DNA of 56,750 bases from Actinomycetes bacterium (GCA_021794645.1 JAJYQK010000101.1:337-57086); one strand, 5' to 3'. Positions 44,595 through 53,729 are shown, numbered from the stretch's first letter. The notes: generated by a model from the letters alone, not told the origin. Translations and numbers: made by a program.

Positions 44595-45509
44595 GTGCTC
44601 GAGCCGGCCGTCGAGAGGGCCTTGGCCGAGCTGCTGCGGGGACTCGGAAGGAGAGCTCCTGATGCTGACCGCTTCGTCGCCTGGCGCTGGGGAGACCCGC
44701 CGTTTGCTGAGGACGTCTTCACCGACCCGGCCATCGCCCGGCGAGCTACGCGCCTGTATGTCTCTCGGATGGCATTGCACCGTCCGAGAGAGACCCTTTC
44801 CTTCGTCAAGTCCTGGCATGCCTCCCTGCTCGCTGCCGCCGAGCAACCGGGGCTCTCGCGAGATCTCCTGGTCTGTGGGGCTGCCTACAAGTGGGCCGGC
44901 GAGTTCGAAGAGTCCGTCTCGTGCCTGAGACAGGCCGTCGCAGTCGCCGAGACGGAGGCGGGGCGCCGCTCTGCCGCCATCTCACTTGCCAGCAGCCTCA
45001 GCTGGGCAGGCGAGCACGATGAGGCCGTCCAGGTGGCAGAAGATGCAGCCAAGGAGGTCATCGCCGCCTACGACGACGACCGCTCCCCGGCGCTGCTCGA
45101 GGCCGAACAGGTGCTGGCGAGCTGTCGCCTGGAGGCCGGCCAGGTCGACCTCGACCTCTGGGTCGACTTGAGAGAGCGGCGCTGGCGGGCCACCGGGCTT
45201 GCTGCGCCAGACACAGCCGTCGCCTTCTACGGAGTCGGTCGGTGCTGGCTCGAGACCGGGCATCTGCAAGCGGCATTGGCCTGTGCTGCGACTGCTGTCG
45301 CTATCCGAGATCAGTGCGTGCTGAGCGCATTCGACAGTGCCCGCATCGACTGGTTGCTCGCTGGTGCGGCGGAGCACGCTGAAGAGCTCCCCGACAAAGA
45401 CGAGCGGGCTTACTGGCAGGCCCGCGGCCGGGAGGCGGCGCGCCATGCCTCTTTCCTCCTGCTTGACGCCTGTGGTCCGGACCATCGGCTCGTGCGAGGC
45501 CGCCACTGA
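44595..45509 (+). CDS. Hypothetical helical-repeat (TPR-like) protein
   Basis: GTG immediately follows the upstream TAG. Repeated Ala/Leu-rich helix pairs (AAYKWAGEFEESVSCLRQAVAVAE, SLSWAGEHDEAVQVAEDAAK, GRCWLETGHLQAALACAATAVAI). Confidence 0.5.
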   Translation: MLEPAVERALAELLRGLGRRAPDADRFVAWRWGDPPFAEDVFTDPAIARRATRLYVSRMALHRPRETLSFVKSWHASLLAAAEQPGLSRDLLVCGAAYKWAGEFEESVSCLRQAVAVAETEAGRRSAAISLASSLSWAGEHDEAVQVAEDAAKEVIAAYDDDRSPALLEAEQVLASCRLEAGQVDLDLWVDLRERRWRATGLAAPDTAVAFYGVGRCWLETGHLQAALACAATAVAIRDQCVLSAFDSARIDWLLAGAAEHAEELPDKDERAYWQARGREAARHASFLLLDACGPDHRLVRGRH

Positions 45510-45687
45510 GGACGAGGGACGGCTCGTCAAGTCTGCAAATGAGACGTCTGCGCTCTTGTTGTTGCGTCGGCTGCCAACCACAATCAAGTCGTCGCCGCTG
45601 GCGGAGTAGGGGACATCTATGGGGCGACTGGGGAGAGCCGGGGGCAATGGACCCCTGCCCGCCAGTGGCGATTGCGCCCCGTAGCCT

Positions 45688-45719
45688 CTTGGTCACAGGC
45701 TCGATCCCGGCCGGGAGCA
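45688..45719 (+). repeat. Degenerate copy of the tRNA-Met 3' end (putative attR / tRNA remnant)
   Basis: cttggtcacaggctcgatcccggccgggagca compared with the tRNA sequence cttggtcgcaggttcgatccctgccgggccca (38995-39026) is 27 of 32 identical in the same orientation. gcgccccgtagc at 45674-45685 resembles the tRNA 5' end (gggcccgtagc). Confidence 0.55.
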
Positions 45720-45910
45720 CTGCCGGGGCCAAGACAGCACTGCCGGCCGGAGCCGGTCCTTTCCGGCCCATGGCAGCTCCGAGGTAGGCCGGCTCGACGA
45801 CCCGCTCGAGCGACGGCCAAGTGTCTGAACCGGTCCCGCAGGTACCCGGGAGGGCCCCCGGCCGCGGCGAACGCCGCCGCGAGGCGCTTTGCGCTGGCAC
45901 ACTGGCGGCC

Positions 45911-46648
45911 GTGAACAGGCACGTCGGTCCGGCGGCTCTCCCGGGAGAGGGCGAGGCCAGCCAGCACCGCCCAGGCATCCTCGTCGTCGACGACGAGCCC
46001 TCGATCGTCGACACGGTGGCGACGGTGCTCAGGTACGAAGGCTTCTCCGTCGACGAGGCGAGCGACGGCCGCCAAGCGCTCTCCCGTCTGCAAGAGAGCC
46101 ACTTCGATCTCGTCATCCTCGACGTCATGATGCCCGGACTGGACGGGCTGGAGGTGACCCGTCGCCTGCGGGCAGACGGCATCGAGGTGCCCGTCCTCTT
46201 CCTGACGGCCCGGGGAGAGACGGCCGATCTGGTCGCCGGCCTTGCCGCAGGCGGGGACGACTACATCGCCAAGCCGTTCTCCCTCGCCGAGCTGGTCGCT
46301 CGGGCCAAGGCCCTGCTGCGGCGGGCCGGGAGCACGAGCGGGGAGCGAAAGCTGCGCTTCGCAGATCTCACGATGGACGAGGAGAGCCACGAGGTGTGGC
46401 GGGGCGAGACACAGATCCAGCTGACAGCGACTGAGTTCAACCTCTTGCGTGTCTTCATGCTCAACCCGCGCCGGGTTCTCTCCAAGGCTCAGCTCATCGA
46501 CTACGTCTGGCACTACGACTTCGGCGGCAACCAGAACATCGTCGAGACCTACGTGCGCTACCTGCGCCGCAAGCTCGATCCACTCGGCCCTCCCCTGATC
46601 CACACCATCCGGCTCGTGGGATACGTCCTGCGGGAGCCGGACGCCTAG
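45911..46648 (+). CDS. OmpR-family response regulator
   Basis: Receiver domain (ILVVDDEPS...LVILDVMMPGLDG...LFLTAR...DDYIAKPF) and a winged-helix output domain (...LTATEFNLLRVFM...VETYVRYLRRKL...IRLVGYVL). Start is GTG at 45911, or at 45821. Confidence 0.85.
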   Translation: MNRHVGPAALPGEGEASQHRPGILVVDDEPSIVDTVATVLRYEGFSVDEASDGRQALSRLQESHFDLVILDVMMPGLDGLEVTRRLRADGIEVPVLFLTARGETADLVAGLAAGGDDYIAKPFSLAELVARAKALLRRAGSTSGERKLRFADLTMDEESHEVWRGETQIQLTATEFNLLRVFMLNPRRVLSKAQLIDYVWHYDFGGNQNIVETYVRYLRRKLDPLGPPLIHTIRLVGYVLREPDA

Positions 46649-46649
46649 C

Positions 46650-48227
46650 GTGTCGCTCCGCCTCCGACTCCTCATAGCAGTCGGGGTCGTCGTGGCGCTG
46701 GCACTGGTAGCCGTGGACATCGCCACCTACTCGGCCTACCGCTCCTACCTGGCGGGCCGGACGGACTCGAGCCTCGAGGCAGCAGCCGGACCCCTGGCGA
46801 GCTGCCTGGAAGAGGGCGGCCACCTGAAGCTGAGCCTCGTGGAGGAGTCGGCCCCGGGCGTGCTGGCCGAGCTGTGGTCGCCCGGCGGAAAGCAGCGCGC
46901 CTTCGTGGCCGCCGCCTCCGCCGGGCGGGGCGGTACCAGCCATCTCGCCCGTCCCCGCCTGCCCGGCTTCCCGGCTCAGGTTTTCACCGCCCCCCGCCAG
47001 AAGCAGGCGAGCGGGCCGATGAGCGACAACTGCCTCGACACCCTCTCGCCCGGTGAGCGGCTTAACCACCTGCCCGGCAGCCTCTCGTCCGGCAAGGACC
47101 TCGGGAGGGCTCTCACCCCCTCGTTCTCGGTGAGGGGCGTCTTCGCCACCTCTCCGGAGGTGAGCGAGAGCCAGCCCGCCTACCGCCTGCTCGGGGTCCA
47201 CCTGTCGACTGGCGAGGGCCTCGTCGTCGGCCTCCCCCTCACAGCGAACGCCGAGTCGCTCGGCCAGCTCCTCCTCATCGAGCTCGCCGTCTCGGCAGCC
47301 GCCCTCATCGGCGCCATCCTCATAGGGCTCTGGCTCGTGCGGATCGGGGTGAAGCCCCTCGTCGAGATCGAAGAGACGGCGGCCGCCATCATGGAGGGCG
47401 ACCTCGAGGCTCGCGTCCCGGACCGGTTCTCCCCCCGCACAGAGCTCGGCCAGCTGACCTTCGTCCTCAACTCGATGATCGAGCGCCTCTCCCAGGACAT
47501 CGAGGAGCGGATGGCGAACGAAAGCGCCCTCATGGCCTCCGAGCAGCGGATGCGGCGCTTTCTTGCCGACGCCTCCCACGAGCTGCGCACACCGGTGGCG
47601 GCCGTCTCGGCCTACGCCGAGCTCTTCGGTGCCGGAGCTGACCGGCGCCCAGAGGACCTCGTCAGGGTGCTGCGGGGGATAGCGAACGAGACCGACCGGA
47701 TGCGCCGCCTCGTCGAGGACCTCATGCTGCTCGCCAATCTCGACGAGGGCCGGCCGCTCGAGCGGCGGCCGGTGGAGCTCGTCGCGCTGGCGGCCGATGC
47801 GGTCCACGCGGCAGAGACCATCGGCGACTGGCCCGTCTCGCTCGTGGCCTCCGAGCCGGTCGAGGTGACCGGCGATGAGGCCCGCCTCCGCCAGGTCGTC
47901 GACAACCTCCTCTCGAACGTGCGGAGCCACACCCCGCCCGGGACGCCGGCCGAGGTGACCGTCTCCCGGCGGGGGGAGGAAGCCGTCATCGAGGTCGCCG
48001 ACCGCGGTCCGGGGTTGAGCGCCGCCGCCCGGGAGCTGGTCTTCGAGCGCTTCTTCAGAGACGACACCTCGAGAGCCAGGTCCTCGGGCGGCGCCGGGCT
48101 CGGCCTCGCCATCGTGCGGGCGATCGTCGAGGCGCACGGCGGGAGGGTGGAGGCGGGCGAGACGCCGGGCGGAGGTGCTCGCTTCACCATCGTCCTGCCG
48201 GCGAATCGAGACGGGGTGGCCGGGTAA
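46650..48227 (+). CDS. Sensor histidine kinase (two TM helices, HAMP, HisKA, HATPase_c)
   Basis: H-box FLADASHELRTPVAAV, N box VVDNLLSNV, G boxes VADRGPGL and GGAGLGLAIV. N-terminal TM helix, then a ~180-aa extracytoplasmic loop. Confidence 0.85.
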   Translation: MSLRLRLLIAVGVVVALALVAVDIATYSAYRSYLAGRTDSSLEAAAGPLASCLEEGGHLKLSLVEESAPGVLAELWSPGGKQRAFVAAASAGRGGTSHLARPRLPGFPAQVFTAPRQKQASGPMSDNCLDTLSPGERLNHLPGSLSSGKDLGRALTPSFSVRGVFATSPEVSESQPAYRLLGVHLSTGEGLVVGLPLTANAESLGQLLLIELAVSAAALIGAILIGLWLVRIGVKPLVEIEETAAAIMEGDLEARVPDRFSPRTELGQLTFVLNSMIERLSQDIEERMANESALMASEQRMRRFLADASHELRTPVAAVSAYAELFGAGADRRPEDLVRVLRGIANETDRMRRLVEDLMLLANLDEGRPLERRPVELVALAADAVHAAETIGDWPVSLVASEPVEVTGDEARLRQVVDNLLSNVRSHTPPGTPAEVTVSRRGEEAVIEVADRGPGLSAAARELVFERFFRDDTSRARSSGGAGLGLAIVRAIVEAHGGRVEAGETPGGGARFTIVLPANRDGVAG

Positions 48228-48314
48228 GTATCAGCGGCGACCACGGGCGTTCCCAGCCAGCTCCAAGCTCGGCCCGGCAAGCTCTCCCAGCCATGGCACA
48301 ACGTGAGGTGAGAA

Positions 48315-49709
48315 GTGGCCTCGGTCACCTTCGAGAGAGCTAACGACACCTCCCGCCGCCGCGGCCAGCCGCGGCAGGCGACCGCCAAGCGGCTCTCCCG
48401 GCCGCCTCGGCCAGGCGTGGTGGACCTGGCCGTCGTCCTTTTCGGCCTCGGGCTCGGGGCCTCGGTGGCGCTCGCCCTCACGGCCGAGACGGCGGCGGGG
48501 ATGAAGGCCCCCGGCGGCGTCGCCATGTTCATCGGCAACCTCACCGGCCTGGCCGGCACCTACCTCGCCCTCGTGATGATCCTCCTCGTGAGCCGGATAC
48601 CGGTCGTCGAGCGGACCCTCGGTCAAGACGGCCTGCTCGCCTGGCACCGCCGGCTCGCCCCCTGGCCGATCTCGCTCATCGTCGCCCACGCCGTCTTCCT
48701 CACGATCGGCTACGCCCAGGCGGCCCACACCGGCGTGATGCACGAGCTGAGCACCTTCATCTCGAGCTTCCCGGGCATGGCCATCGCCATCGCCGGCTTC
48801 GGCATCCTCGTCGTGGTGGCGGTCCTGTCCATCTACTCGGTGAGGCGCCGCCTCAGGCGGGAGACGTGGTGGGCGATCCACCTCGGCATGTACCTCGCCT
48901 TCGCGCTCGCCTTCGCCCACGAGGTCGTTCTCGGGCCCTCTTTCGTGAACCATCCGCTCACCCAGGCCGTCTGGTCGGCCGCCTGGGCTGCCACGGCCGG
49001 GGTGGTGCTCGTCTACCGCTTCGGGCTGCCGATCTACCGCAGCCTCCACCACCGCCTCCGCGTGGTCGAGCTGCGCCCCGAAGGTGAGGGCGTCACCTCT
49101 GTCATCCTCGAGGGGCGCCACCTCGACCGCCTCCCCATCTCGGGCGGGCAGTTCTTCGAGTGGCGCTTTTTGAAGCGCGGGCTCTGGTGGCAGGCCCACC
49201 CCTACACCGTGTCGGCCCGCCCCCGCCCCCCCTATCTCCGCCTCACCGTGAAGGCCGTCGGCGACCACTCCGCCGCCCTGGCCCGCCTCGAGCCGGGCAC
49301 GCGGGTGGCCGTGGAGGGCCCCTACGGCGCCTTCACGGCCCATGCCCGCCGCCACCAGCGGGCGGCTCTCCTGGCCGGGGGCATCGGCATCACCGCCGCC
49401 CGCTCCCTCCTCGAGGACCTCCCCAAGCGCAGCCAGCCCGTGGTGGTCTGGCGGGTGGCGAGCGAGGCCGAGGCAGCCCTCGCCGAGGAGGTCCGCCAGC
49501 TCGTCTCCCACCTCGGCGGCAAGCTCCACCTGCTGGCGGGCAGCCGGGAGGAGTTCCCGCTCGAGAAGGTCGTCGGCCTCGTGCCCGATCTTGCCACCCG
49601 CGACCTCTACGTCTCTGGCCCGGAGGGCTTCGTCAGCGGGGTCGTCGGCCTGCTCCGCCACTCCGGGGTGGCCGAGGAGGCCATCCACAGCGAGGTCTAC
49701 GCCCTGTGA
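48315..49709 (+). CDS. Ferric reductase-like (NOX/FRE-type) transmembrane protein with FAD- and NAD(P)-binding domains
   Basis: N-terminal six-TM region with conserved His pairs (WHRRLA...AHAVFL; IHLGMY...FAHEVV), FAD motif HPYTVSA, NAD motif LLAGGIGITAARS. Confidence 0.8.
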   Translation: MASVTFERANDTSRRRGQPRQATAKRLSRPPRPGVVDLAVVLFGLGLGASVALALTAETAAGMKAPGGVAMFIGNLTGLAGTYLALVMILLVSRIPVVERTLGQDGLLAWHRRLAPWPISLIVAHAVFLTIGYAQAAHTGVMHELSTFISSFPGMAIAIAGFGILVVVAVLSIYSVRRRLRRETWWAIHLGMYLAFALAFAHEVVLGPSFVNHPLTQAVWSAAWAATAGVVLVYRFGLPIYRSLHHRLRVVELRPEGEGVTSVILEGRHLDRLPISGGQFFEWRFLKRGLWWQAHPYTVSARPRPPYLRLTVKAVGDHSAALARLEPGTRVAVEGPYGAFTAHARRHQRAALLAGGIGITAARSLLEDLPKRSQPVVVWRVASEAEAALAEEVRQLVSHLGGKLHLLAGSREEFPLEKVVGLVPDLATRDLYVSGPEGFVSGVVGLLRHSGVAEEAIHSEVYAL

Positions 49710-50182
49710 CCCGGCTGAAGGGCGCTTTTGCCACCCTCGCCGCCGTCGTGGGCTTCGCGGCCGTGCTCGTCGCCCACACCCTCATCGGCTCGTCCGTCCC
49801 GGCCTCGCTCCGCAGCGCCGCCGGCAACAGGCCGGGGGGCTCCCCCTCCAACTCATCGAAGACCCCGACCACCACGGTGCCCGGGCCGGCCGGCGTGACC
49901 GGCAACCACATCGTCACAGGCAAGGTGACCGGCTACGGCTATGGCGAGGTCGCCGTGCGGCTGCAGGTGGACAACGGCCGCATCGTCTCTGTGAAGGTGG
50001 CGAAGCTGCTGACGGCCGACAGCTACTCCCAGCAGATCGCCCAGCAGGTCATCCCGATGCTCGCCCGGGAGGTGATGGCCGCCCAGAGCGCCCGCATCTC
50101 GGCCATCTCGGGGGCCACCTACACGAGCGAGGGCTATGCCTACTCGGTCCAGTCGGCTCTCGACGCCCTGAAGAAGGGATGA
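49706..50182 (+). CDS. Membrane-anchored FMN-binding domain protein
   Basis: GTG overlapping the upstream stop. N-terminal TM anchor LKGAFATLAAVVGFAAVLVAHTLIG. The FMN_bind domain carries the flavinylation motif ISGATYTS. Confidence 0.8.
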   Translation: MTRLKGAFATLAAVVGFAAVLVAHTLIGSSVPASLRSAAGNRPGGSPSNSSKTPTTTVPGPAGVTGNHIVTGKVTGYGYGEVAVRLQVDNGRIVSVKVAKLLTADSYSQQIAQQVIPMLAREVMAAQSARISAISGATYTSEGYAYSVQSALDALKKG

Positions 50183-50994
50183 GCGAAGAGGGCTACTTCC
50201 GCCACGCCGAAGCCGTCATGGGGACAGTGGTCTCCTTCCTCCTCGCAGAGGACGGCCTCGCCTTCACCGAGGTGCTCGCCGCCACGGAGAAAGCCGCCGC
50301 CGAGCTCCACCGGCTCGATCAGATCTTCAGCCTCTGGCGGGAGGACAGCCCGATGTGGCGGCTGCGGGCGGGCAGCCTCGCCGCCGAAGAGCTCCCGCCC
50401 GAGATCCCCGCCGTCCTCGCCCTCTGCGCCGAGGTGAGAGAAGAGACGGGGGGCAACTTCGACCCCTGGGCGCTGCCGGGCGGCCTCGACCCGACGGGCC
50501 TGGTGAAGGGGTGGGCGATCGAGCGGGTTGGCGCTCTGCTGCAAGGGGCCGGTATACCGGCTGGGATCGTGAACGGTGGAGGCGACATGACCGCGTTCGG
50601 CCGGCCCCCGGCCGGGCCGGCCTGGCAGGTGGGCATTCAGCATCCCTGGCGGCGTGAGCGGCTCGCCTGCGTGGTCGGGCTGGCCCCGGGCCAGAGCCTC
50701 GCCACCTCGGGCCGCTACGAGCGGGGCGAGCACCTGTTCACCCCGCTCCCGGCCGCCGGGTCGGTACGGACCGCCTCGGTGAGCGTGGTCGGCCCCTCGC
50801 TCGCCCGGTCCGACGCCTATGCCACCGCCCTCTCGGTGGCGGCGGCGCCGGCCTCGCTCGCAAAGATGCTGCCCGCCGGGTATGAGAGTTACATAGTCTT
50901 CGAAGATGGCGCCGAAGAGGCGACCACCGGCTTTCCCTTCGCCGATCCTCCCCCCGACGGCGACGACAACCGAGGAACCCCACTACACCCATGA
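50179..50994 (+). CDS. apbE: FAD:protein FMN transferase (ApbE family)
   Basis: ATGA overlap with the upstream gene. AEAVMGTVVSF, FDPWALP...GLVKGWAIE, GGGDM, ATSGRYERGEH. No signal peptide or lipobox is evident. Confidence 0.85.
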   Translation: MSEEGYFRHAEAVMGTVVSFLLAEDGLAFTEVLAATEKAAAELHRLDQIFSLWREDSPMWRLRAGSLAAEELPPEIPAVLALCAEVREETGGNFDPWALPGGLDPTGLVKGWAIERVGALLQGAGIPAGIVNGGGDMTAFGRPPAGPAWQVGIQHPWRRERLACVVGLAPGQSLATSGRYERGEHLFTPLPAAGSVRTASVSVVGPSLARSDAYATALSVAAAPASLAKMLPAGYESYIVFEDGAEEATTGFPFADPPPDGDDNRGTPLHP

Positions 50995-53078
50995 ACCACA
51001 GAGCCGCCCCCCACTCCCGCGCCCGGCGAGAGGCCGAGCTCCGCCGGGCTGCCGCCCGCCGCCGCGGCCGCCTCCGTCTCGTCGGAGTCCTCGCCGCCCT
51101 GGCGATCGTGATCGGCCTCGCCGTCTCCTTCGGCGGCGGCGGCAAGGCCACCGGCGACCCGGGCAACGGGGCGACGAGGACAGCAGACGTCAGCTCCCGC
51201 AGCGGGCCGCCCGCCATCGAGGCCGGGCTCATGCCCTGGAAGCTGAACGGCCCCCTCAGCCGGGAGGTCGTGCTGCCCGCCTCGAACGGCAAGTCGCTCA
51301 TCGTCGTGGGCGGCCTCACCACCTCCGGCTCGGAGTCGGGCATCTACCGGGTCAACCCGCTCACGGGGGCCGCCGCCCAGATCGGGCAGCTGACCGCCCC
51401 CAGCCACGACTCGGCCGGCGTCGTCCTGAACGGCAAGGGGTACGTCTTCGGCGGCGGCTCAACCGCCCCGGTCAACTCGGCCGAGCGGCTCGCCAGCCTC
51501 GGCTCGGGCTCGGGCACAGCTACCCCCCTCGCTTCCCTCCCCCAGGCCCGCTCGGACGATTCGGCGGCCGTCATCGGCCAGACGGCCTACATCGTCGGCG
51601 GCTACTCGGGGCCGAGCGCCGACAGCGCCGTGCTCGCCACCCGCAACGGGCAGAGCTACAAGACCGTCGCCCACCTGGCGGTGCCGGTCCGCTACGCCGC
51701 TGTGGCTGCCCTCGGCCGCAAGCTCTTCGTCTTCGGCGGCGACGCCACCTCGGGCCCCCGCTCGGGCGCCCCCATCACGGCCATCCAGGAGGTCGACCCG
51801 ACCACCGGCAGCGTCCGGGTGGTCGGAAAGCTGCCGCTGCCACTCGCCGGCTCGGCCGCCGTCGACCTCGGCGGCACCATCTACCTGGCGGGTGGCGAGA
51901 CGGTCCCTACGACCGCCAGCGCCGCTGCCACCCCCTCTGAGGTCTCGACCATCTGGGCCTTCGCCCCCGCCAGTGGGAAGCTCCTCGTCGCCGGCCACCT
52001 CTACGTGGCGCTCTCGCACGCCGGTGTCGCCGTCATCGGCAAGCGGGCCTGGCTCGTCGGCGGCGAGACGCGGGGCGGGGCCATCTCGAGCGACGTCCAG
52101 ATGTTCGAGCCGAACCGTCGGTTCGGGACCGCCGGGGCCAAGGGGGCGGGCTCGCCCTACTTCGGCGACACCCTCCTCATCGCCGACCGGGGCAGCAACC
52201 GGCTGCTGGCCGTCACCGACACCGGCAAGGTCATCTGGACCTACCCGTCGGCCGGCAAACCGGCGCCGCCGGGGGGCTTCTACTTCCCAGACGACGCCTT
52301 TTTCATCGACCACGGCCACGCCATCATCTCCAACCAGGAGGAGAACGAGACCCTCGTCGAGATCGGCTACCCGTCGGGCAAGGTCCTCTGGCAGTACGGC
52401 CACCCCCACCAGCCGGGCTCGTTGCCGGGCTACCTGCACAACCCCGATGACGCCTACCTGCTGAAGAACGGCCTCGTGACGGTGGCCGACCCGGTGAACT
52501 GCCGAGTGCTGGTCATCGACCCGAAGACGAAGAAGATCCTGACCCAGATCGGCACCCCGGGCGTGTGCGTCCACAACCCGCCCCACTACCTGGGCTCGCC
52601 GAACGGGGACACCCCCCTTGCCAACGGCAACCTCCTCGTCTCTGAGATCAACGGCTCGTGGATCGACGAGTACACGCTCTCGGGCAAGCTCGTGTGGACC
52701 ACCCACTTGCCGATCTCCTACCCCTCCGACCCCCAGCCGCTCAAGGACGGCAACTTCCTCGTCGCCAACTACGCCAACCCGGGCGCGTTCATCATCTTCA
52801 ACCGCTCCGGGAAGATCCTCTGGTCCTACGGGCCGACGAGCGGGCCGGGCAAGCTCAACCAGCCCTCCCTCGTCGAGCAGCTGCCCTCCGGCGTGCTGAT
52901 GGCGAACGACGACTACAACGACCGCATCGTCGCCGTCGACCCGGCCACCAAGGCGGTCGTCTGGCAGTACGGCCACACCGGTGTGAAGGGGACGGCTCCG
53001 GGCTACCTCAACACCCCGGACGGCTTTGACATCCTCGGGCCGAACGGCACCTTCCCGACCCACCCGGCGACGGGCTGA
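50991..53078 (+). CDS. Membrane-anchored protein with Kelch-like and second beta-propeller (ASST/PQQ-like) domains
   Basis: ATGA overlap with apbE. Arg-rich N-terminus plus TM helix LVGVLAALAIVIGLAV. Repeated ...GGxxxxG...V/IY motifs (Kelch-like). The C-terminal half has repeated G(K)(V/I)LWxYG blades (VIWTYPS, VLWQYGH, LVWTTHL, ILWSYGP, VVWQYGH). Confidence 0.7.
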   Translation: MNHRAAPHSRARREAELRRAAARRRGRLRLVGVLAALAIVIGLAVSFGGGGKATGDPGNGATRTADVSSRSGPPAIEAGLMPWKLNGPLSREVVLPASNGKSLIVVGGLTTSGSESGIYRVNPLTGAAAQIGQLTAPSHDSAGVVLNGKGYVFGGGSTAPVNSAERLASLGSGSGTATPLASLPQARSDDSAAVIGQTAYIVGGYSGPSADSAVLATRNGQSYKTVAHLAVPVRYAAVAALGRKLFVFGGDATSGPRSGAPITAIQEVDPTTGSVRVVGKLPLPLAGSAAVDLGGTIYLAGGETVPTTASAAATPSEVSTIWAFAPASGKLLVAGHLYVALSHAGVAVIGKRAWLVGGETRGGAISSDVQMFEPNRRFGTAGAKGAGSPYFGDTLLIADRGSNRLLAVTDTGKVIWTYPSAGKPAPPGGFYFPDDAFFIDHGHAIISNQEENETLVEIGYPSGKVLWQYGHPHQPGSLPGYLHNPDDAYLLKNGLVTVADPVNCRVLVIDPKTKKILTQIGTPGVCVHNPPHYLGSPNGDTPLANGNLLVSEINGSWIDEYTLSGKLVWTTHLPISYPSDPQPLKDGNFLVANYANPGAFIIFNRSGKILWSYGPTSGPGKLNQPSLVEQLPSGVLMANDDYNDRIVAVDPATKAVVWQYGHTGVKGTAPGYLNTPDGFDILGPNGTFPTHPATG

Positions 53079-53162
53079 AAGGTCCCTCACCAGGAACTGG
53101 GACCCACCTGAGACTTCCCCGGGCGACGGTGGCTCGCCCCGGTGAGTGGGTAGGTTCCCTAC

Positions 53163-53729
53163 GTGCAATACCGCGCCCGCAAAGAGACGCCCTTCGGTCC
53201 GGCGCCAGAGCCGGTCGGCCTTCTCCTCGACTACGCCAGGGTCGACTTCCCAGAGACGCTGCCGCGGCCCTCCTGGCCACGCTTCTTCATCGCCACGGCT
53301 CTGGCCATCGTCGGCTCACTGCTGGTCGACGGCCTCCTCGTCGCTCTCGGCACCAAGCTCTTCCCTTCGACCCAGGGGTATATCCACTTCCGCTTCAGCG
53401 ACTACTCCAGGCTGACGGTGATCGGCGTCATCTTCGCCTGTGTCGGCTGGCCGATCGTGACGGCCATCTCCTCGCACGCCCGCTGGCTCTTCTTGCGGCT
53501 GGCGGTCCTCGTCACCCTCGTGCTCTTCCTGCCCGACCTCTACCTCCTCGTGGTCGGCTCGACCATCGAGGCGGTCGCCGTGCTGATGACGATGCACCTC
53601 GCCATCGCCGTGGTCACCTACAACGCCCTCGTCCGCCTGGCGCCGGCCGACAGGCCCGGGCGGCCCGCCCCGGGCGGCCTGCGGGCCGGCGGACCGACCC
53701 GTCGGGTCGAGATCGACTTCGAGCCCTAG
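53163..53729 (+). CDS. Hypothetical 4-TM membrane protein
   Basis: 188-aa ORF with hydrophobic helices (FFIATALAIVGSLLVDGLLVAL, VIGVIFACVGWPIV, LAVLVTLVLFLPDLYLLVV, AVAVLMTMHLAIAVV). Confidence 0.6.
   Translation: MQYRARKETPFGPAPEPVGLLLDYARVDFPETLPRPSWPRFFIATALAIVGSLLVDGLLVALGTKLFPSTQGYIHFRFSDYSRLTVIGVIFACVGWPIVTAISSHARWLFLRLAVLVTLVLFLPDLYLLVVGSTIEAVAVLMTMHLAIAVVTYNALVRLAPADRPGRPAPGGLRAGGPTRRVEIDFEP

Follow-up and report, generated by a model that had tools for sequence, protein, structure and literature searches.

A stretch of 56,750 nucleotides from an actinobacterial assembly (GCA_021794645.1, JAJYQK010000101.1:337-57086; the whole of which is termed ‘the window’ here) carries six co-directional open reading frames (ORFs) on the + strand between positions 45911 and 53078, which encode a two-component system, a NOX-like membrane reductase, a membrane-anchored FMN_bind protein, an ApbE-family flavin transferase and a large double beta-propeller protein. 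The window belongs to a metagenome-assembled genome (MAG) of an uncultured member of the Acidimicrobiales (~90% complete; 2.35 Mb in 197 contigs), which is labelled G000 in the comparisons below.

Direct reading of the window places these genes in close succession. The TAG stop of an OmpR/PhoB-type response regulator (RR; 245 amino acids, 45911..46648) is followed, after 1 nt, by the GTG start of a membrane histidine kinase (HK; 46650..48227). A gap of 87 nt (48228..48314), in which a Shine-Dalgarno-like GAGGTG site stands ahead of a further GTG start, leads to the reductase gene (48315..49709); the genes for the FMN_bind protein (49706..50182), ApbE (50179..50994) and the propeller protein (50991..53078) then each overlap the preceding gene by 4 nt (GTGA at the first of these junctions, ATGA at the other two). 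An earlier interpretation of this DNA, made from the sequence alone (the ‘sequence-only reading’), had described the same six genes and junctions, and had assigned domains that are all confirmed by Pfam and hydropathy analyses, apart from the second half of the propeller protein. Judging from the overlapping junctions, the NOX, FMN_bind and ApbE genes are translationally coupled. A consensus scan of positions 45400-53500 returned no terminator-like and no sigma-70-like promoter sites, a result that is uninformative in an actinobacterium of 70% G+C.

Products of the six genes

The reductase displays a basic N-terminus, six transmembrane helices (by hydropathy) and a cytoplasmic FAD/NAD(P)H dehydrogenase domain. 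It matches the Pfam models Ferric_reduct (PF01794; 50.1 bits, cut-off 28) and FAD_binding_8 (26.3 bits, cut-off 22); for NAD_binding_1 the score of 17 bits is below the cut-off of 22, yet GGIGIT and HPYT motifs align to the dehydrogenase domain of the S. pneumoniae NOX (SpNOX), with whose structures (8qq7/8qt6) residues 149-444 give a phmmer match of E=3.6e-11. The four haem-ligand histidines (H111-x13-H125 and H189-x12-H202), which show the spacing that marks TM3 and TM5 in the NOX/ferric-reductase-domain superfamily, do not vary among 24 homologues; the FAD motif HPYT and the NAD motif GGIGIT are conserved too. The histidines, these motifs and the SpNOX match bear out the earlier description of a bis-heme NAD(P)H/FAD reductase. 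The gene is present in all 24 genomes of the window’s family.

The FMN_bind protein (Pfam FMN_bind, 34.1 bits, cut-off 22) crosses the membrane once, with a helix at residues 9-27 that follows a basic n-region and precedes a Pro/Ser/Thr-rich linker and the FMN_bind domain. Its motif A-I-S-G-A-T-Y-T-S contains the SGAT flavinylation signature that had been pointed out from the sequence alone; SGAT starts 24 residues from the C-terminus, a position that is kept in most of 63 homologues, and the protein adjoins the only ApbE of the assembly. That ApbE is a short-form member of its family (271 amino acids; Pfam ApbE, 120.4 bits, cut-off 25.6). Since the assembly contains exactly one ApbE and one FMN_bind domain, both of them in this cluster, the two appear to form a dedicated pair.

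The 695-residue propeller protein is a type-II membrane protein, consisting of an Arg-rich tail, a transmembrane helix (30-48), a disordered linker, a Kelch domain (~76-375) and an NHL-type domain (~390-690), each domain having six blades. AlphaFold2 modelled the full length with 46 homologues at a pLDDT of 90.6 and a pTM of 0.85, and the C-terminal domain alone at a pLDDT of 92.0. The first domain scores above the Pfam Kelch cut-off and is matched by Foldseek to the Kelch domains of KEAP1/KLHL (TM-score 0.75-0.84, normalised to the target). The second is matched to the NHL domains of Thin, TRIM2 and TRIM71 (TM-score 0.71-0.74, normalised to the target; E about 1e-13), and by phmmer to TRIM71 (E=7.5e-8); the Pfam NHL repeat model stays below threshold, and Pfam PQQ_2 gives a match. 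The sequence-only reading had called this second propeller ASST-like and had proposed structure prediction as a check. The fold turned out to be of the NHL type: Arylsulfotran_2 (PF14269) reaches 18.4 bits against a cut-off of 27, and the top 50 Foldseek matches comprise NHL, YVTN, BamB and WD40 proteins, with no ASST among them. In the alignment of the 46 homologues, conservation is far higher in the NHL half than in the Kelch half: C504 and C526 are invariant, as are several His, Asp and Glu positions, and the motif PTHPATG is conserved at the C-terminus. Many of these invariant residues are part of the structural repeat motif of NHL domains. The family is large, with over 2700 scored homologues, which come for the most part from Acidimicrobiales and are annotated as no more than BamB/PQQ-like or Kelch proteins. 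Related genomes commonly encode a Kelch half or an NHL half by itself; G000 itself has a stand-alone paralogue of the NHL half (448 amino acids, 45% identity; contig C10, 26283-27221; L200, 8945-10291), located upstream of genes for a B12-binding radical-SAM protein and CtaA (haem A synthase).

The response regulator (Pfam Response_reg, 116 bits; Trans_reg_C, 85 bits) falls below every NCBIfam equivalog cut-off, and has an alternative GTG start at 45821. In sister genera (L015, L016, L017, L028 and L053), a co-directional gene for a membrane protein of ~228 residues ends at the regulator start, and the regulators begin a few residues ahead of the ILVVDD motif; in the window (45821-45976), island sequence stands in place of that gene, and the regulator ORF has a 22-residue N-terminal extension. 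The kinase (Pfam HAMP, HisKA and HATPase_c) has transmembrane helices at residues 7-25 and 207-225, and the loop between them, of ~180 residues by hydropathy, is the large external loop noted previously. An alignment of seven orthologues shows two cysteines of this loop, C52 (C-L-x-x-G-G) and C128 (S-D-x-C), to be kept in six; in the seventh (L120) the second cysteine is displaced. The pair may constitute a structural disulfide or a thiol redox sensor or switch.

A maximum-likelihood tree was built from the regulators adjacent to NOX or propeller genes, with all OmpR-type regulators of G000 as background. The window’s regulator and the NOX-adjacent regulators of sister genera form a supported clade (100/95), and the regulators beside NOX triads or propeller genes fall overall into at least four distinct lineages; two-component systems were thus recruited repeatedly rather than inherited once. 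In many genomes of the window’s family, full-length kinase orthologues lie on contigs other than that of NOX. A search for an operator shared by the region upstream of the regulator and the 87-nt gap yielded nothing beyond a 10-mer that stands on opposite strands in the two. The 11-nt sequence AGCACTGCCGG is perfectly repeated in direct orientation at 45716 and 45736 (45716-45746; 20-nt period), ~165-195 nt upstream of the regulator start; it was dropped as a candidate binding site for the regulator because eight related loci lack it in the region that precedes the regulator gene.

Gene order and co-occurrence in related genomes

Conservation of the six-gene order, a check suggested in the sequence-only reading, was examined in two sets of loci. 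For one, species-representative genomes were scanned with an alignment of 24 NOX sequences, giving 80 loci, which belong to Acidimicrobiales and to MAGs that bear the labels Actinomycetes, Streptosporangiaceae and Solirubrobacteraceae; the other comprised 80 metagenome loci centred on the propeller gene, which were reduced to 36 propeller clusters by dereplication at 80% identity. The core proved to be stable: FMN_bind directly follows NOX in 77 of the 80 NOX loci, and ApbE lies within 3 kb downstream in 67. A two-component system of any kind is found near 22 of them, in three layouts: co-directional and upstream, as in the window, with regulators ~80% identical (five loci); divergent and upstream (14 loci); or downstream (four loci, one of which is also among the divergent ones). 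A propeller homologue occurs within 9 kb in 11.

Viewed from the propeller, a NOX, FMN_bind or ApbE gene is found within 10 kb in 12 of 80 loci, in seven of the 19 that have at least 12 kb of flank, and in eight of the 36 clusters; most propeller genes therefore sit elsewhere. The order of the window, with the propeller after ApbE, is kept in G001 (of the same genus) and in G007, whose upstream-encoded two-component system shares only 32-36% identity with that of the window, and in four sister genera (G005, G009, G010 and G015) a convergent undecaprenyl-diphosphate-synthase-like (uppS-like) gene lies between ApbE and propeller. Because sister genera differ in these respects, the six-gene putative operon is, as far as sequence comparison can tell, a genus-level configuration and not a conserved unit.

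The association of the propeller with flavin-based modules nevertheless recurs in several forms. Tight, same-strand succession of ApbE and propeller is found in the window, G001, G007, L120 and L085, the last with a propeller that is 34% identical. The opposite order, propeller then NOX, occurs in L068, L198 and G314, a genome of another family in which a NAGPA-like gene is followed by an NHL-only propeller, NOX, FMN_bind and ApbE. A different arrangement is seen in L108 (7108-11076), L131 and L151, where a DoxX/DoxD-Rieske fusion membrane protein and an FMN_bind protein with an SGAS motif precede a Kelch + NHL propeller; these modules are followed by a small membrane protein gene (c16memb, described below), RR and HK genes, and a NOX/FMN_bind/ApbE triad. 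Among 300 class-level genomes, a propeller-like match was found in 30 and NOX in 27, with both in 11 against 2.7 expected (odds ratio 9.2; Fisher p 7e-6, uncorrected for relatedness), and six of the eight genomes with NHL-domain matches have NOX. The direction of this co-occurrence agrees with the adjacency data. From these sequence comparisons, the link between the propeller and the redox module exceeds chance, and the additions to the core are facultative yet recurrent.

The same regions also hold genes for cell-envelope synthesis. Recurring neighbours, in shuffled order, encode a NAGPA-type phosphodiester glycosidase, a UbiA-type PRTase, DprE1-like and DprE2-like proteins, UppS, c16memb and DUF6069, and genes of decaprenyl-phosphate-arabinose synthesis together with NAGPA-type genes flank the NOX triad or the propeller in L032-L040, L121, L091, L092, L080 and L116. 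In L121, nine such envelope genes are co-directional over 10 kb. The arabinose genes of G000 lie on another contig (C26, 6189-11453), beside a different two-component system, and regulators of that C26-type lineage are the divergent NOX neighbours in 11 other loci. The DUF6069 gene of the window (small membrane protein; 53163..53729, + strand; Pfam DUF6069, 30 bits) starts 84 nt past the propeller stop, and L031 has a member of this family after its propeller, as L120 and L188 have one close by; it is possibly a seventh co-directional gene, and a candidate member of the unit only. The c16memb protein is a His-rich membrane protein of ~220 residues, with about four hydrophobic segments and no Pfam family (best match Frag1, E=0.03), encoded at 12734-13375 in L028, 12815-13453 in L053, 14358-15026 in L032, 9158-9862 in L092 and about 11201-11809 in L108. 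In two loci there is a 4-nt overlap between its gene and the ApbE stop; in another the gene stands immediately before NOX, and in several it neighbours the propeller. The window cluster lacks it, its nearest G000 match being on contig C133. The protein may represent an additional haem protein of this system.

Proposed electron path and competing explanations

We consider it somewhat probable that the locus elaborates, in a lineage-specific manner, on the NOX-like (‘MsrQ-like’) module by which actinobacteria are predicted to pass electrons across the membrane with the help of flavins, adding to it a two-component system and a propeller protein. In such a scheme, cytoplasmic NAD(P)H would reduce the FAD of the reductase, and electrons would traverse the membrane via two b-haems to reach an FMN that ApbE would have linked by a covalent bond to Thr137 in the membrane-anchored FMN_bind protein; the flavinylated protein would in turn pass them on to an acceptor outside the cytoplasm. 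Expression of the putative operon would be driven by the OmpR-type regulator encoded upstream, together with its kinase, and the ~180-residue loop of the kinase, with its cysteine pair, may sense the redox state of the envelope. At the outer face, the Kelch + NHL propeller would be functionally tied to the flavinylated shuttle, either as the acceptor or as a substrate-presenting scaffold. The sequence-only reading had named it a plausible extracytoplasmic partner, a suggestion now supported by the recurrence of its link to FMN_bind modules in independent gene orders. It is a reasonable candidate for that part, for and against which we see the chances as about evenly divided; it could alternatively be an accessory or a target of the two-component system, or a mere neighbour.

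A number of observations weigh against this proposal. About two thirds or more of the propeller genes have no redox module nearby, and a full-length propeller is found in only about half of the 24 family genomes that carry NOX. The uppS-like gene between ApbE and propeller in the four sister genera implies that the propeller there needs a promoter of its own, and the relatedness of the 300 genomes causes the co-occurrence p-values to overstate the case. The proximity of propeller and NOX could partly reflect regional synteny within a cell-envelope region, given that the same genes are found shuffled in these neighbourhoods and that the arabinose genes of G000 lie on another contig. No recognisable redox cofactor motif was seen in the propeller protein, and Kelch and NHL folds usually serve as binding scaffolds; the literature search found no experimental study of the actinobacterial triad. 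Finally, ApbE is predicted to be cytoplasmic and the FMN_bind domain to face outward. The transferase has no signal peptide, transmembrane helix or lipobox, and starts 13 residues ahead of its conserved MGT motif; it belongs to its family by Pfam while lacking the N-terminal Sec or lipoprotein signal of canonical exported ApbE proteins. No hydrophobic segment precedes the MGT motif in 56 of 57 triad homologues across Actinomycetota, so that this is a family-wide property and not a local annotation fault. An upstream alternative start that would supply a signal peptide was rejected, its frame overlapping FMN_bind and reading as Arg/Pro-rich, antisense-type sequence in relatives.

This topology could reflect flavinylation before export, possibly via Tat, an ApbE that reaches the outside by an unrecognised route, or an inward-facing FMN_bind domain. 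That the domain faces the cytoplasm, which would make the module an inward or membrane-internal redox device with no outward conduit, or else is flavinylated in the cytoplasm before export, we regard as very unlikely. The signal-less transferases fit such a reading, as do the ambiguous charge balance around the helix of the window’s FMN_bind protein (two positive residues on each side) and the existence of documented cytoplasmic ApbEs, for example in Klebsiella (PMC12052999). However, common to the FMN_bind homologues are an n-region of the form M-[KR]-R-x-P, a hydrophobic helix that ends in a conserved His and long Pro/Thr/Ser-rich linkers, features typical of exported actinobacterial proteins that argue for export; the topology of NOX locates its distal haem on the outer side; the flavoprotein is outside in published AlphaFold modelling (bioRxiv 10.1101/2024.03.13.584918); and the RR residue pair found in 23 of the 63 homologues would permit Tat export after cytoplasmic flavinylation. 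An outward-facing triad might, in turn, be sufficient to itself, working either as an assimilatory ferric reductase driven by NAD(P)H or as an oxidase that forms superoxide, with the FMN_bind protein as the terminal site for reducing Fe(III), O2 or small, soluble extracellular acceptors. The homology to SpNOX, which extends to the haem, FAD and NAD motifs, would suit this explanation; so would the lack of a nearby propeller in 69 of the 80 triads, the retention of NOX in every family genome with or without a propeller, and the presence of VIT1 iron transporters in 153 published MsrQ-like clusters, for a subset of which iron reduction has been proposed (PMC8238504). We nonetheless judge it improbable: no iron transporter or Fur-type element was seen in the window cluster, the recurrent adjacency of propellers and two-component systems would be left unexplained, and SpNOX works without an FMN_bind partner, so that the conserved FMN_bind/ApbE pair implies a different acceptor chemistry.

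The remaining alternatives concern the propeller. It might belong to the two-component system, as an extracytoplasmic co-sensor or a regulated envelope protein, the NOX triad being merely an intervening member of the regulon. Of the 80 propeller loci, 24 have a two-component gene no more than 3 kb from the propeller, as do 11 of the 36 clusters, a frequency that equals or exceeds that of the redox link; in L171, L172 and L185, the propeller is followed by RR and HK genes across gaps of 35-58 nt with no NOX in view, and their regulators find their best G000 match in the window’s own (44-47% identity). Kelch and NHL folds are, moreover, typical binding modules. Yet the association involves at least four regulator lineages with differing kinase loops, and thus no single conserved propeller-kinase pair; in the DoxX-Rieske loci FMN_bind directly precedes the propeller with no two-component system between; the NHL-only homologue of G314 stands between the NAGPA-like gene and NOX, again with no two-component system; and the co-occurrence with NOX across genomes would go unexplained. 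This makes the idea, in our estimation, a doubtful one. Functional coupling might also be lacking altogether, if the locus were a reshuffled ancestral envelope neighbourhood of the Acidimicrobiia in which the overlap of ApbE and propeller arose secondarily, once uppS had been lost or moved. The order in the sister genera (ApbE, convergent uppS, propeller) is what such a history would leave, and the closest G000 homologue of uppS (78% identical to the intervening-gene family) is indeed on another contig, C90; the surroundings of both propeller and NOX repeatedly include NAGPA-like, DprE1, DprE2, UbiA-PRT and c16memb genes, in an order that varies, and many propeller genes occupy unrelated contexts. 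Against this stand the adjacency in a distant lineage with a much diverged propeller (L085), the opposite gene order of L068, L198 and G314, and the adjacency to a different FMN_bind module (DoxX-Rieske), which are hard to explain by inherited order alone, as well as the correlated presence and absence of the two genes across the 300 genomes. We hold an absence of coupling to be unlikely.

If the locus is an elaborated NOX-like electron-transfer module as proposed, a more ambitious version can be formulated, which we put forward tentatively and expect to be wrong more often than right. The double propeller, as an enzyme or a scaffold presenting a substrate, would be the dedicated extracytoplasmic end-point of flavinylated shuttles, fed either by NOX (from NAD(P)H) or by DoxX-Rieske proteins (from quinol), in Acidimicrobiia and related Actinomycetota, with dedicated two-component systems switching the module after sensing the redox state of the envelope by means of a cysteine pair. 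It would then represent an undescribed envelope redox system, tied genomically to cell-wall genes of decaprenyl-phosphate-sugar and NAGPA type. The actinobacterial NOX-like/FMN_bind/ApbE module is among the most widespread predicted extracytoplasmic electron-transfer systems, and its recurrent, independently assembled link to one exported protein family supplies a concrete candidate partner; a similarly concrete lead comes from the two-component systems that were recruited repeatedly, among them one whose kinase has a conserved pair of external cysteines. The family-wide lack of a signal peptide in ApbE raises the question of where and when the exported flavoprotein becomes flavinylated in these monoderms.

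Comparison with known systems

The NOX-like/FMN_bind/ApbE core is not new: by its sequence features, it is the already catalogued ‘MsrQ-like’ flavinylation system, described by Meheust et al. (2021, eLife; PMC8238504) from 1797 clusters, mostly in Actinobacteria. That system is defined by a PF01794 protein encoded in a cluster with an apbE and/or FMN_bind gene, and the window has all three as consecutive, overlapping genes. The likeness extends to the broad occurrence in Actinobacteria and to the proposed path from NAD(P)H, the suggested cytosolic donor (PMC8238504), through the haems to an outside, covalently bound FMN; in 1437 of the 1797 published clusters, the haem protein has an NAD-binding domain at its C-terminus (PMC8238504), and an AlphaFold model of the cytochrome with an anchored extracytosolic flavoprotein has been presented by Huang et al. 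(2024; bioRxiv 10.1101/2024.03.13.584918). The window differs in that an RR/HK pair precedes the core, a double propeller is translationally coupled to it, and ApbE has no signal peptide; the main text of the published catalogue names no two-component system and no Kelch/NHL propeller, and a literature search on Kelch or NHL domains combined with ApbE or flavinylation found nothing relevant. The sequence-only reading knew of no characterisation of the whole ensemble as a unit. The three-gene core had been described already (PMC8238504), whereas the attachment of a two-component system and a propeller is indeed absent from that main text. The propeller and two-component findings leave the classification of the core unchanged.

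The reductase resembles SpNOX and the eukaryotic NADPH oxidases in its ferric-reductase transmembrane domain, its H-x13-H and H-x12-H spacings, its HPF(S/T)-type FAD motif and its GGIGIT motif. However, SpNOX acts alone and reduces O2, whereas the reductase of the window has an adjoining FMN_bind protein and ApbE, which suggests that electrons are handed to a protein-bound flavin instead of O2. The MsrQ-MsrP system of E. coli likewise uses a bis-haem membrane protein with a ferric-reductase domain to feed an extracytoplasmic partner protein. In contrast to the reductase described here, MsrQ has no fused dehydrogenase domain and receives its electrons from quinol or Fre, and it serves the molybdoenzyme MsrP; the window cluster contains no gene of the PF00174 type.

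Extracellular electron transfer in Listeria monocytogenes offers a further parallel, in that an ApbE-type enzyme of a monoderm flavinylates a membrane-tethered FMN_bind protein from which electrons are passed outward. There, however, PplA is a lipoprotein with two FMN_bind domains, FmnB is exported, the input is quinone-based and a NOX-type haem wire is lacking. Membership in that system was rejected, as Ndh2, EetA/B, DmkA/B and a PplA-type lipoprotein are absent from the cluster and its flanks, and membership in the NQR or RNF complexes was rejected as well, as the NqrB/RnfD, NqrD/E and RnfA/E subunits are absent from the cluster and the RnfG model reaches 17 bits against a cut-off of 205. 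Of the trans-membrane conduit suggested in the sequence-only reading, the components stand; its likeness in kind to Listeria FmnB/PplA or to NQR/RNF gives way to the ‘MsrQ-like’ assignment.

For the propeller, actinobacteria provide precedents in LpqB, which is associated with MtrAB, and in Rv1057 of M. tuberculosis, a beta-propeller protein regulated by MprAB and TrcRS. By analogy, the arrangement in the window may be likened to these, as an extracytoplasmic propeller-type protein encoded beside, or controlled by, an OmpR-family two-component system; it differs from them in that its propeller protein is a tandem of Kelch and NHL domains, and in that this protein also recurs beside FMN_bind modules.

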